Both the position numbers and the translations under genes were made by a program. DNA of 14,342 nucleotides, from the IMG/VR virus record IMGVR_UViG_2695420539_000017, one strand, 5' to 3'. The stretch is from a virus (taxonomy: Duplodnaviria > Heunggongvirae > Uroviricota > Caudoviricetes). Below are positions 355 to 13,415 of this stretch, piece after piece (the stretch's first letter is position 1; every line of letters starts with the position of its first letter). The notes below the pieces were generated by a model. The model saw nothing but the letters and a program-made list of their open reading frames with translations, did not search any database and was not told where the DNA came from.

Positions 355-412
355 AAAAAGGGCGGCAGAGCAGTCACGGAGTAAAACTGATACCGCCAAA
401 CGTCACCAGAAA
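355..412 (-). ncRNA. dicF: DicF small regulatory RNA (antisense regulator of ftsZ), with 3' U-tail
   Basis: Reverse complement of 355-412 reads UUUCUGGUGACGUUUGGCGGUAUCAGUUUUACUCCGUGACUGCUCUGCCGCCCUUUUU, matching the DicF sequence from memory. Sits between ydfC and dicB as expected. Confidence 0.85.
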
Positions 413-3666: not shown

Positions 3667-5263
<1,597 letters not shown>

Positions 5264-5593
5264 TGGAGCACCTGTGTTGTTCTGAGGTGAGCATATCACC
5301 TCTGTTCAGGTGGCCAAATTCAGTGTGCCACTACAAAGTGATGAGATTAAAGTTTATTAGTTCAGATATTGATTGGCTCTTTTGTGGAGTAGGGTAGAGT
5401 TAGTGTGTTTGTCTGCTTGGTGCCAGCAGCGGATATGTTTAACAACAGAAAGCATTCAGCATGGTTAGTGGATTTGCAAAGTGGATTAGGATTTGAGAAA
5501 CTTTGATGAAGTTGTAAAGCTTGTTTCTATAAAAATAGAAATTTAACTAATAGTTAAACACACCTCCAGCTTCATTGAAAAGGATTATTAGCT

Positions 5594-6493
5594 ATGATTG
5601 ATCCACTTATTAGAAACTTACAGAGTGATATTGCACTACTCCAGCTTTATATCGCGCAACGCAAACAGGCAGGCTTTCATGACATGGAAAGAATAATTGA
5701 GTCATTGACCATCTTTATGTTTCGCGCGCTGAAAATGGGTGAACTGGTAAACATGAATCAGATTAAAGTTAATTTTCCCGCCATTGATTTAGCTGATAAT
5801 AAAAACATGATAGCAGTTCAAGTTACTACGAATGCAAGTCCAGCAAAAATTAAAAAAACTATCGAATCTTTTGAGAAAATAAATGAAATAGGAGAGAGTC
5901 TGAAAGATAAATACTCTACTTTATATATTTTTGGTTTTTGTAAAGCCTCAAGATACCTAACTCCAAGTTATTGTAAAATAATCGACCCCAGCTATTTCGT
6001 GAATGAACTTTGCGATAAAGCAGATGAAGATATGGTCCAGGATATGATTGACGCCATTCGACGCCATCATGATTATACATCATTACATCCATGGAGTGAT
6101 AAAGATTCACTCGAAATTATACTCAATATTATTAATCGCAATGCAATAAAACATCGGATGAGTTGCGAAGGCAGTCTGTCTGATATGCTCACTGGTTTAA
6201 AAGAAATTAATGAAGTAATTACAAAAGGAACAATTCAACGTAAGCAACGTTCAAAATCGATATCTGACTTCAAAGATCAAAGCATGGTGAAATTTATGAG
6301 AGGTGTAATGGATGATTTGTCTGTTATTCAAGCCATAGTGAACAAATCTAAAGTTAACCAAGGTGATATGGTTTATATAAGCCATGAAGATATGATTAAT
6401 ATTGATAAATTAAAAGCTAAAATAGCAAGTGATTCATCAGAGATTGCAAGGCTAAATAATATTGATATAACACTAAATGTTGTTGATTTATAA
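5594..6493 (+). CDS. Hypothetical 299-aa protein of the AT-rich island, with an RNxxxH (HEPN-like) motif; candidate toxin/abortive-infection-type effector
   Basis: Complete AT-rich ORF with AAGGA upstream of ATG 5594. Motif RNAIKH at residues 182-187 (nt 6137-6154); N-terminal motif NFPAIDLADNKNMIAVQVTT. Domain assignment not verified by search. Confidence 0.7.
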   Translation: MIDPLIRNLQSDIALLQLYIAQRKQAGFHDMERIIESLTIFMFRALKMGELVNMNQIKVNFPAIDLADNKNMIAVQVTTNASPAKIKKTIESFEKINEIGESLKDKYSTLYIFGFCKASRYLTPSYCKIIDPSYFVNELCDKADEDMVQDMIDAIRRHHDYTSLHPWSDKDSLEIILNIINRNAIKHRMSCEGSLSDMLTGLKEINEVITKGTIQRKQRSKSISDFKDQSMVKFMRGVMDDLSVIQAIVNKSKVNQGDMVYISHEDMINIDKLKAKIASDSSEIARLNNIDITLNVVDL

Positions 6494-6807
6494 TTGTCGA
6501 TTTAGCAAAACAGAGAATGCTTTGAAAGTTTCACCGAGAAATATTTATTGTGAACCTCCTTATTGTTTATCGACTTTTACTCTCCGCTCATTGCAGTACT
6601 GTCGGAGAAGGCTACTATGTACAAGAAGCAGCTAACATAAGCGAGCATCACTATTGATATTAGGAAGAGTATATAAAAACTTCATGCTGAACCTTACAAA
6701 AGTAGGTAAACCGGCAATGGCCTAAGTGGCAGGGTCATGTTGATCCGGCACTGCCGAGCTAATAATTAACAAGCAAATCACTCTTTCTAATAATTTGTTG
6801 AAATAAA

Positions 6808-7461
6808 CTAAATATGTATATGTTTACCAACAACCACATATGAACTACCTGCTTTGCTCCATGATTTTATTATTTCTAAATTATTATCTGAGCATATTTT
6901 ACTTACAGTATCCACATCTAATAAACCATAGTAGAAAGCATTGCGAGAGTTTTGGTATATATACCCATGCAAATGTTTAATACCGCTCTCGTACCTCTTG
7001 AAATAAGAACTTTTGTATTGATTGACAATCAGTGCTTCACCATCACTCTTTAATAATTCTCTAATCGCACTGAGGACTTTGTGAATTGTGGATTCACATG
7101 GAATTGCGGAAAGCACGTTTGCGCAAAGTATGAAATCATAATGATTTGTTATTTTATCTATATTTTCATAAGAAACAATATTAGCATTCTTATAGTTATT
7201 TATCACGTAATCTGGAATCGTGGTTTGTACACCTCTGATAATTTGCACTCTTTCTAGTTGTCTTCTGGAATCTAAAAATGTCACAGTTTCAAATTTATTT
7301 ACTAATTGTTCTGAATATCTAAGTTTTCCACATCCAAAATCAAGGGCATTGCCATTTTTATTAGTGCTTTCAATCTGTTTACAGAGATAGTTAGATGGCA
7401 TAGTGTGCGGTTTCGCTGCATTTTCTGAACGTATGTTTATTCCATTTATTTTGTAATTCAA
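6808..7461 (-). CDS. Class I SAM-dependent methyltransferase (small-molecule/RNA type), about 217 aa
   Basis: Motif I LDFGCGKL, acidic FLD after beta-2, and a YDFILCANVLSAIP segment; no DPPY/NPPW or PCQ/ENV DNA-methyltransferase motifs. Start set at TTG 7461 (GAGG 5 nt upstream) rather than track TTG 7467, which abuts the SD. Confidence 0.75.
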   Translation of the reverse strand: MNYKINGINIRSENAAKPHTMPSNYLCKQIESTNKNGNALDFGCGKLRYSEQLVNKFETVTFLDSRRQLERVQIIRGVQTTIPDYVINNYKNANIVSYENIDKITNHYDFILCANVLSAIPCESTIHKVLSAIRELLKSDGEALIVNQYKSSYFKRYESGIKHLHGYIYQNSRNAFYYGLLDVDTVSKICSDNNLEIIKSWSKAGSSYVVVGKHIHI

Positions 7462-7473
7462 AATCAACCTCGT

Positions 7474-8169
7474 TTAAAAAATATTGTTATTGTTAAAGAA
7501 TTCTTTTATTTTGCTATCAGGTATTTGTCTTACTTGGCTTTCTGTTCTTGGTTTAACTGATGCTATGAAAATAAGGAAGTCAAATGCGACAAGAGAAATA
7601 ATCCACAACCAAAGATTAATTAAAGAGCCAGTAACAGAGAATATATTTGTTAATTTGGCGATACTTATTATTAAAATAGTAACAAATGCGATTACTGTAT
7701 GTTCAAAGAAAACCCAAAAGTAATAAACTTTGTTCCAGAAAAGTTCAACGTAATGTTTGTCTTTTAACTCTTTAACTTCTGGGTAATACAGTTTACTCAT
7801 TACCTTGTGAGATTCATCAGTAGTTAATTTTCTCGTAACGCCTGCAATTTTTGCTAATGGTTTAATAATTAAATGACTATCCCACATCTTCCTTATTCCA
7901 ATAATTTTTGCTACATTATTATGTAGATCTAAAGCTCCACTAATTACTGACCAAAAAACTGAAGATGCAATTGGTAATATGCCAAAGGTTAATATCCATT
8001 TAATAAATTCCTCGTAGTCTTTAACGGGGGGGATATACTTGGCATTAATGCCAACCAATGGCATGTAGCCATAAATGACTAATGATAGGTAAAATATAAA
8101 TGTAGTAATAAAAGTCGCCTTATGGAGCATAGGCAACATTTCATTATAACTCTTTGGTGGTTCTAACAT
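7474..8169 (-). CDS. Integral membrane protein (about 4 predicted TM helices), 231 aa, unknown function
   Basis: Hydrophobic stretches (ATFITTFIFYLSLVIYGYMPLV, FIKWILTFGILPIASSVFWSVISGAL, VYYFWVFFEHTVIAFVTILIISIAKL, LINLWLWIISLVAFDFLIFIASV). Start set at ATG 8169 (GGAGAG upstream). Its stop at 7476-7474 lies 12 nt before the methyltransferase start. Confidence 0.7.
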   Translation of the reverse strand: MLEPPKSYNEMLPMLHKATFITTFIFYLSLVIYGYMPLVGINAKYIPPVKDYEEFIKWILTFGILPIASSVFWSVISGALDLHNNVAKIIGIRKMWDSHLIIKPLAKIAGVTRKLTTDESHKVMSKLYYPEVKELKDKHYVELFWNKVYYFWVFFEHTVIAFVTILIISIAKLTNIFSVTGSLINLWLWIISLVAFDFLIFIASVKPRTESQVRQIPDSKIKEFFNNNNIF

Positions 8170-8610
8170 TTTACTCTCCAAACACTCAAAAAAAAGCTAA
8201 TCTTCTATAATAACGAAATTCAGCTGGCACAATTAAAGATTAATTGCCACCAATTTCTTGATTTTATAATTTTATCTAAATGTTTTTGATTAATCTAGTC
8301 CTAAAAGAAACCTACTGCATAAATATTTATGCTGATGACCCACTCCCTGTTCGTTAACACATAGCAACGTTAGTAATGCATCCTAAGTGATCAATATTTT
8401 TGCTAGCTTCATCTGCTCGCTCAAAGGGAACTATAATGTTGGCTTGCGTGTGACTTGGCATGTTTAAAGAAGTGCTGGTGGTGACTGGTTGCTGTTTTCC
8501 ATTTCCACAGAACAAAATCATAGAAACTATACCCAGTAGTTGTATTGAATCACTGACGAGACAGCCTCATATTTATCAGGACTGGTGTACGTCCAATACA
8601 GGAGGTTGTG

Positions 8611-8736: not shown

Positions 8737-8911
8737 TGCTGCGGGTGCTTGAGGCTATCTGCCTCGGGCATCAACACCAAAGGCAGATAGAGAAAAGCCC
8801 CAGTTAACATTACGCGTCCGGCAAGACGCTTAACATTAATCTGAGGCCATATCTATGCTCTACACACGTAGGTTAGCCTCTTACGTGCCGAAAGGCAAGG
8901 AGAAGCAGGCT

Positions 8912-9067
8912 ATGAAGCAGCAAAAGGCGATGTTAATCGCCCTGATCGTCATCTGTTTAACCGTCATAGTGACGACACTGGTAACGAGGAAAGACCTCTG
9001 CGAGGTACGAATCCGAACCGGCCAGACGGAGGTCGCTGTCTTCACAGCTTACGAACCTGAGGAGTAA
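8912..9067 (+). CDS. hokD: Hok-family type I toxin (HokD/RelF-like), 51 aa
   Basis: MKQQKAMLIALIVICLTVIVTTLVTRKDLCEVRIRTGQTEVAVFTAYEPEE matches HokD as I recall it; AAGGAG 9 nt upstream of ATG 8912. The track ORF 8855..9067 is an in-frame upstream extension. Confidence 0.9.
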   Translation: MKQQKAMLIALIVICLTVIVTTLVTRKDLCEVRIRTGQTEVAVFTAYEPEE

Positions 9068-12199: not shown

Positions 12200-12275
12200 G
12201 GCCCTTTAGCTCAGTGGTGAGAGCGAGCGACTCATAATCGCCAGGCCGCTGGTTCAAATCCAGCAAGGGCCACCA
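12200..12275 (+). tRNA. ileZ: tRNA-Ile2 type (anticodon CAU, ileX/ileZ-like; could formally be annotated Met)
   Basis: Cloverleaf: acceptor GGCCCTT/AAGGGCC, D-stem GCTC, anticodon loop CTCATAA, T-arm GCTGG-TTCAAAT-CCAGC, encoded CCA. Close to E. coli ileX from memory. Gene symbol by analogy with Stx phages. Confidence 0.8.
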
Positions 12276-12282
12276 TCACATA

Positions 12283-12359
12283 CCGCCATTAGCTCATCGG
12301 GATAGAACGCCAGCCTTCGAAGCTGGTTTCGCGGGGTTCGAGTCTCCGATGGCGGTCCA
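12283..12359 (+). tRNA. argN: tRNA-Arg (anticodon UCG by my fold)
   Basis: Anticodon stem CCAGC/GCTGG with loop CTTCGAA; T-loop TTCGAGT; acceptor CCGCCAT/ATGGCGG; encoded CCA. One D-stem mismatch and a C1-G72 pair are atypical. Symbol by positional analogy only. Confidence 0.65.
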
Positions 12360-12372
12360 TTATCGGTATTCT

Positions 12373-12449
12373 GCGTTTTTAGCTCAGCCGGACAGAGCAA
12401 TTGCCTTCTAAGCAATCGGTCACTGGTTCGAACCCAGTACAACGCACCA
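12373..12449 (+). tRNA. argO: tRNA-Arg (anticodon UCU, reads AGA)
   Basis: Anticodon stem ATTGC/GCAAT with loop CTTCTAA; T-arm ACTGG-TTCGAAC-CCAGT; encoded CCA; one acceptor-stem mismatch. Symbol by positional analogy only. Confidence 0.7.
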
Positions 12450-13215: not shown

Positions 13216-13415
13216 TTTTTTTGTTTGCTGTTTATTAAAAACACTTCTGCATGGTGAATCCCCCTGTGCGGTGGGGCAATCAGCAAGAAGGAATATGGGG
13301 TAATCGCGGATTCAGGTGCTGATACTGAATTCACCGGGAGGCACCCGGCACCATGCTTTGCCACAAAAGTGTTATTTCTGTTTTTCTCAAACTATCATCG
13401 TTATCCCTTTATTTT

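Follow-up and report, generated by a model that had tools for sequence, protein, structure and literature searches.

The 299-residue protein encoded at positions 5594-6493 of an E. coli prophage is, on balance, best regarded as a standalone two-domain candidate defence nuclease, in which an N-terminal SMEK domain would be regulated by a C-terminal four-helix bundle and which travels as cargo of prophages and other mobile elements. Positions are those of the window, by which we mean the whole 14,342-nucleotide stretch of DNA that was analysed; it derives from a lambdoid prophage of the Qin/Dic type in E. coli. The protein is 100% identical to RefSeq WP_000566848.1, which is named 'SMEK domain-containing protein', so that the SMEK name is already public there. 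SMEK nucleases have so far been discussed solely as effectors of short Argonautes. What is new here is that SMEK also occurs in a compact architecture missing from the catalogues, whose C-terminal domain is seen nowhere else and which resides in defence islands as well as in an E. coli prophage. This compact standalone form is carried by 2.8% of the complete E. coli genomes and is scattered over at least five phyla. If it defends against phages, it would be a single-gene system that current catalogues have overlooked.

The features of the window are summarized in Table 1. The SMEK gene is complete, and the initial annotation was correct both in assigning 299 amino acids to its plus-strand reading frame and in describing the context as AT-rich: the GC content is 0.30-0.35 over positions 5501-8500, an island of about 3 kb with a GC content of about 0.32, against 0.43-0.55 in the flanks. 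The gene order of the prophage is DicF, dicA/dicC, ydaT, DUF977, the AT-rich island, sok/hokD, DUF968, RusA, Q and three tRNAs. DicF, sok, the three tRNAs and the STnc100 sRNA are usual content of Qin-like prophages. The DUF977 gene carries an inserted IS911-like element at its extreme end, 258 bp ahead of the start codon of SMEK. The DUF977 reading frame is 176 amino acids long with the element and 140 amino acids long in the prophage of E. coli strain C3, which lacks the element and is otherwise 98-99% identical. The insertion may uncouple the SMEK gene from upstream early-operon transcription. No inverted repeats of the element were found at the settings used, and when the island was scanned for promoters and terminators, the counts stayed at or below shuffle expectation.

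Table 1. Coordinates of the SMEK gene, its parts and other features of the window (residue numbers refer to the SMEK protein)
Feature	Position	Strand	Basis or remark
DicF sRNA	360-411	-	Rfam gathering-level match
IS911-like element, IS3 family	4089-5335		boundaries from alignment to strain C3
rve transposase ORF of the IS911-like element	4095-4799	-	
AT-rich three-gene cassette	5422-8326		also present, at 83% nucleotide identity, in another E. coli prophage with an unrelated backbone
SMEK gene	5594-6493	+	complete; ATG start, 299 codons and stop
SMEK_N / Mrr-like PD-(D/E)xK domain, residues ~6-146	5609-6031	+	Pfam, NCBIfam, PADLOC, PDB, AF2
Invariant nuclease-type residues E36, D65, Q76, T78, K85	5699-5848	+	conservation, Kordia alignment
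Codon of E36	5699-5701	+	
Codon of D65	5786-5788	+	
Codon of Q76	5819-5821	+	
Codon of K85	5846-5848	+	
Low-confidence linker, residues ~157-168	6062-6097	+	pLDDT
Family-specific up-down four-helix bundle, residues ~169-287	6098-6454	+	AF2 models
Conserved segment R182-N-A184-I-K-H187...E192-G193	6137-6172	+	55 relatives, secondary structure
Class I SAM-dependent methyltransferase, 219 aa	6808-7467	-	convergent to the SMEK gene
235-aa protein, about four hydrophobic segments	7474-8181	-	no family match; convergent to the SMEK gene
sok antitoxin RNA, adjoining hokD	8743-8917	+	Rfam gathering-level match
Three tRNA genes, downstream of the Q antiterminator	12200-12446	+	Rfam gathering-level match
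STnc100 sRNA	13220-13392	+	Rfam gathering-level match

The N-terminal half of the protein is recognised by several profiles. Pfam SMEK_N (PF21941) reaches E=2e-22 (79.9 bits, cut-off 27), NCBIfam NF033859 E=1e-30 (105 bits, cut-off 30) and the PADLOC model Aga_REase-PNTD1-PNTD2 E=1e-20, the last over profile positions 9-143 of 463 only. A profile search of the PDB identified chain 26bh_D, the Mrr domain of the Mrr-APAZ pAgo of Kordia jejudonensis (E=3.4e-13, residues 20-139), and the alignment contains a signature, E...NFPAIDLAD...QxT(S)...K, that is common to both proteins. The Pfam, NCBIfam and PDB matches bear out the SMEK assignment that the initial annotation had offered tentatively. The NFPAIDLAD...AVQVTT motif lies in NFPAIDLADNKNMIAVQVTT (residues 60-79, nucleotides 5771-5830). 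A SMEK_N profile made from APAZ- and STAND-type proteins only aligns to residues 6-146 (E=2e-25), and the nuclease domain therefore takes in the strand at 127-130 and the helix at 132-142.

Conservation was counted in an alignment of 55 divergent relatives of 17-49% identity. E36, D65, Q76 and K85 are each present in all 55, even at 17% identity, and T78 in 52. In the AF2 model (pLDDT 86) the order of the domain is alpha-alpha-beta-beta-alpha-beta-beta-alpha, with E36 on the helix 31-45, D65 just ahead of the strand 66-68, Q76 and T78 on the strand 73-81 and K85 at the beginning of the helix 83-94. As modelled, this order fits the alpha-beta-beta-beta-alpha-beta core of restriction endonucleases. 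Within the PD-(D/E)xK fold, such an order corresponds to a core with the lysine displaced from the triplet. K85 is not part of the classical (D/E)xK triplet, whose place is taken here by Q-V-T. Their invariance suggests that E36, D65, Q76 and K85 are catalytic, and we assume catalytic competence by analogy with the Kordia relative. In the literature, SMEK is an Mrr-like nuclease effector in a subgroup of short pAgo systems, and activity has been reported only for the Kordia Argonaute complex, as weak collateral DNase activity. The SMEK domain studied here probably cuts DNA. A comparison of the SMEK_N profile with EcoKMrr by hhalign detected no similarity (probability 0.1), so the label 'Mrr-like' derives from the title of the PDB entry and from published work.

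The C-terminal half belongs to no catalogued family: residues ~150-299 match nothing in Pfam, NCBIfam, PADLOC or PHROGs. AF2 predicts a linker of low confidence (pLDDT below 50 at residues 162-165 of the full model and at residues 32-37 of the C-terminal model) followed by an up-down bundle of the helices 169-184, 195-210, 229-251 and 264-287. When the C-terminal domain by itself served as the query of an exhaustive profile search, 93 clusters (at 50% identity) were recovered among 1.84 billion proteins. Fragments aside, all of them are 290-320 amino acids long and have the domain in the same position, and the domain is therefore confined to one architecture. Its profile matches no SMEK protein of ~500 amino acids and shows no kinship with the C-termini of other SMEK architectures. 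A hint of PDC-S04 in two members was dropped because full-length relatives gave no confirmation. A conserved segment spans the end of the first bundle helix and the loop behind it, with the consensus [DN]-R-x-A-[ILV]-x-[HD]-x4-E-G in the 55 relatives. A184 is invariant (55/55), E192 is present in 54, and R182 and D169 in 53 each. The residue after R182 is mostly D, S or N, with proline in 10 of the 55, and the column of H187 holds His in 35, Asp in 17 (31%) and N, C or Q in the remaining 3. R182, E192 and D169, near-invariant as they are, might just as well belong to a second catalytic site.

The full-length homologues of ~300 amino acids form 108 clusters; a homologue search with the N-terminal profile returned only fragments of at most 241 amino acids. 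SMEK architectures were surveyed in a genome scan with one genome per species, which yielded 71 loci. The ~300-residue family accounts for 19 of these, in Gamma- and Betaproteobacteria, Campylobacterota, Verrucomicrobiota, Planctomycetota and Acidobacteriota. About 45 encode APAZ-type proteins of ~500 amino acids, mainly in Bacteroidota and with Kordia among them, and a few encode ~1100-residue fusions of SMEK with a STAND NTPase, 1304-residue fusions with a PIN-TPR-GreABC region or proteins of 320-550 amino acids with other C-termini. In this sample SMEK_N always lies at the N-terminus, as would be expected of an effector that can be exchanged between different sensing or regulatory modules. 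The STAND fusions, with AAA_16/nSTAND matches, come from Stutzerimonas (L063:5920-9234) and Massilia (L072:5986-9291), and the 1304-residue proteins with a PIN-TPR-GreABC-type region from Chryseolinea and Cyclobacteriaceae (among them L065:5770-9681); nothing was found in the literature on either architecture. In E. coli the SMEK gene was detected in 152 of 5,426 complete genomes, always on the chromosome, and sequenced phage genomes are essentially devoid of it.

The compact family differs from both the APAZ-type and the STAND-type SMEK proteins. It has in common with the Kordia SMEK/Mrr-APAZ protein a homologous nuclease with the same signature and N-terminal placement (E=3.4e-13, as above) and a defence context, but it lacks APAZ, has 299 instead of ~500 amino acids and ends in an unrelated four-helix bundle. 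There is no adjacent Argonaute, the neighbours in the window being the methyltransferase, the membrane protein, DUF977 and the insertion sequence, and PIWI/Argonaute is absent from the 25 most frequent Pfam/PADLOC neighbour families among 135 neighbours in 16 species. Without APAZ and an adjacent Argonaute, and with an unrelated C-terminal bundle, activation directed by a guide RNA cannot apply here. The Avs-like SMEK-STAND NTPases (~1100 amino acids) are alike in combining an N-terminal SMEK_N module with a presumed control module at the C-terminus, whereas the present protein has no NTPase and no repeat sensor, and its regulatory part would comprise only ~140 residues. PADLOC v2 has no model for the ~300-residue architecture, and all 55 relatives are recognised only by Aga_REase-PNTD1-PNTD2, over its first ~143 positions. 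Because this is an Argonaute-partner model, automated pipelines could mislabel such genes as pAgo partners. No paper on the ~300-residue architecture was found in the literature on SMEK, phage defence and Mrr-APAZ.

In qualitative terms, the SMEK gene is found across genomes in defence islands and on mobile elements, prophages included. An all-against-all blastp of the neighbouring proteins found no family in more than two of about 23 loci, and no partner, antitoxin or methyltransferase; the gene accordingly has no obligate partner. In Citrobacter it is flanked on both sides by Lamassu LmuB and AAA_15/21 genes. Its neighbours include Abi_alpha in Vibrio, SLATT_5 in Pseudomonas and helicase, DUF87 and SymE genes in Cupriavidus, and elsewhere SMODS with S_4TM, AbiGi, integrases and resolvases. 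The 135 neighbours from 16 species contain IetAS, a type I restriction endonuclease, GajB, a CBASS cyclase with a 4TM effector, ShosA, PDC-S21 and Mrr_cat. In Pantoea the gene lies in a mobile element with primase/D5, AlpA and Ash genes, which we read as a P4-like satellite; satellites of this type are a recognised defence hotspot. The contexts differ even between loci that encode identical SMEK proteins.

In the mechanism we propose, the effector would be the N-terminal SMEK domain, an Mrr-like PD-(D/E)xK module. Its first core helix carries E36, its central strands carry D65 and Q76-x-T78, and the helix that follows has K85 at its start. The C-terminal bundle of ~140 residues would stand in the place of APAZ or STAND and would keep the nuclease inactive. 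When the bundle senses an infection cue, or drives oligomerisation, the nuclease would be released and would cut DNA. R182, A184 and E192, together with D169, K221 and D271/K274, would constitute a conserved polar site of the regulatory module and not a HEPN centre. More tentatively, the bundle may be a new minimal immune sensor or switch that detects a phage cue directly and activates SMEK, for example by oligomerisation; a variant in which it is a circularly permuted HEPN domain and the protein a dual DNase/RNase is less likely. If the bundle is a sensor, the protein would be among the smallest self-contained sensor-effector defence proteins and a natural 'Argonaute-free, STAND-free' version of SMEK. 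If it protects against phages, it would also be a simple system in which to study how a PD-(D/E)xK effector stays silent and then switches on.

The initial annotation had proposed an RNase effector of the HEPN type, based on the string RNAIKH, which it placed correctly at residues 182-187. The string has the R-N-x3-H form, i.e. Rx4-6H with a polar residue after the arginine, and the C-terminal domain might on these grounds be a divergent or circularly permuted HEPN RNase in which R182...H187 forms a composite site on dimerisation, making the protein an RNase, or a dual DNase/RNase, effector of abortive infection. We consider this unlikely. The caution that an Rx4H match is weak because it occurs by chance was well founded: 55% of shuffles of the same protein hold at least one Rx4-6H and 7% hold R[NDHSQ]x3H, and a second Rx4-6H match in the protein, R23-H29, is evidently meaningless. 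What exceeds chance is the conservation within the family and not the presence of the RNAIKH motif as such. Seen against the known HEPN effectors (HepT/DUF86, AbiD/F/J/V, RnlA, Csm6, Cas13 and the KEN domain of Ire1/RNase L), the domain is alike in the common form of its motif, the near-invariance of R182 with mostly D, S or N behind it, the all-helical up-down bundle of four helices and the defence context. In HEPN domains the motif is placed at the end of helix 3 of the four-helix core and runs into the loop to helix 4, and an insert lies between helices 2 and 3 (PMC3710099). RNAIKH is likewise located where a helix ends and a loop follows, but in the models the helix in question, 169-184, is the first of the four bundle helices, and everything up to residue ~146 is nuclease domain. 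Around residues 160-230, where a HEPN fold had been expected, AF2 gives two helices and not a four-helix core. The literature records H-to-D variants in some HEPN families, circular permutation and REase-HEPN fusions. As some HEPN families tolerate the exchange, the aspartate in the H187 column weakens the case without deciding it; His is retained there in only 35 of the 55 relatives, in contrast to the 55/55 of E36, D65, Q76 and K85, and the small residue at +2 is invariant, unlike in HEPN effectors. No HEPN family was detected at E<=10 when 33 members were searched against Pfam or PADLOC, the PDB profile search returned no HEPN chain, and three fold searches with confident AF2 models gave no HEPN, only generic four-helix bundles. 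An Rx4H string, even a partly conserved one, is too little for a HEPN call. RNAIKH is probably not a HEPN active site and the HEPN reading of the C-terminal domain is disfavoured. Of the interpretation first given, the SMEK part holds, while the HEPN RNase part lacks support.

It is also unlikely that the protein is a constitutive type IV-like (modification-dependent) restriction enzyme, whose bundle would recognise DNA or its modification, leaving the SMEK domain to cleave foreign modified DNA itself; neither abortive infection nor a sensor step would be involved. This would agree with the Mrr-like domain assignment, with a standalone gene that mostly lacks a cognate methyltransferase, as is typical of type IV enzymes, and with the Mrr_cat and type I R-M genes among the neighbours. 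The protein also resembles EcoKMrr and type IV enzymes in its PD-(D/E)xK type and in having Gln for the second acidic residue. However, the Mrr active-site pattern is D...QxK, and the present protein has Thr at the position of the triplet lysine and its invariant lysine seven residues later. EcoKMrr has its binding domain at the N-terminus and its catalytic domain at the C-terminus, an order that is reversed here, and the two showed no similarity in the hhalign comparison. With a pI of 6.5, the C-terminal domain is near-neutral; it is a simple bundle of helices and matches no known DNA-binding or modified-base-reading fold. A further explanation starts from the AT-rich cassette, in which the SMEK gene is accompanied by a methyltransferase and a 235-residue protein, probably a membrane protein to judge from its hydrophobic segments, whose genes form one operon. 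The E. coli prophage unit would then consist of the SMEK nuclease, the class I SAM methyltransferase and the ~4-TM protein, with the nuclease restrained or complemented, for example, by the methyltransferase and membrane pair. The 2.9-kb cassette recurs in two unrelated backbones (the second copy is L087:5814-8748) with 81-85% amino acid identity in each of its three proteins, the SMEK gene has co-diverged with the pair in E. coli prophages, and ~151 E. coli genomes carry the whole unit. Yet the pair is convergent to the SMEK gene and hence not in one operon with it. It is missing beside the 74-83% identical alleles of E. coli EC05, Yersinia, Pantoea and a metagenomic enterobacterium and beside all distant members, and the methyltransferase resembles small-molecule enzymes of the TehB type, not DNA methyltransferases. 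We therefore regard such a unit as improbable; linked to SMEK only in E. coli prophages, the methyltransferase falls outside the general system. Highly improbable, finally, is a non-defence regulator or housekeeping factor of prophage or host with an inactive nuclease-like fold. The idea draws on the legacy name 'regulator' of homologues in Salmonella, Rheinheimera and Chromobacterium and on a Klebsiella phage fragment named 'regulator of acetyl CoA synthetase', names for which no experimental basis was found in the literature and which are probably legacy annotation carried forward. Against it speak the strict invariance of the nuclease-type residues, a patchy spread as in horizontal transfer (2.8% of E. 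coli genomes) with varying contexts, and the embedding of the gene among known defence systems.

Some minor observations were made at individual loci. A SymE-family toxin gene lies directly downstream of SMEK at two unrelated loci, in Cupriavidus and Enterobacter (L008:7154-7369 and L010:6407-6871); SymE is one of just two neighbour families seen twice. At the Pseudomonas locus (L002:6958-9736), SMEK is followed on the same strand by genes for a 219-residue protein with a sub-threshold match to RiboL-PSP-HEPN (E=0.004), a SLATT_5 protein and a 309-residue protein, which may be a separate adjacent system. A homologue on a 3,048-bp contig labelled 'Streptomyces sp.' (L015, NZ_JBFBIU010000052.1) is 87% identical to the enterobacterial protein and is probably assembly contamination, not a genuine actinobacterial gene.
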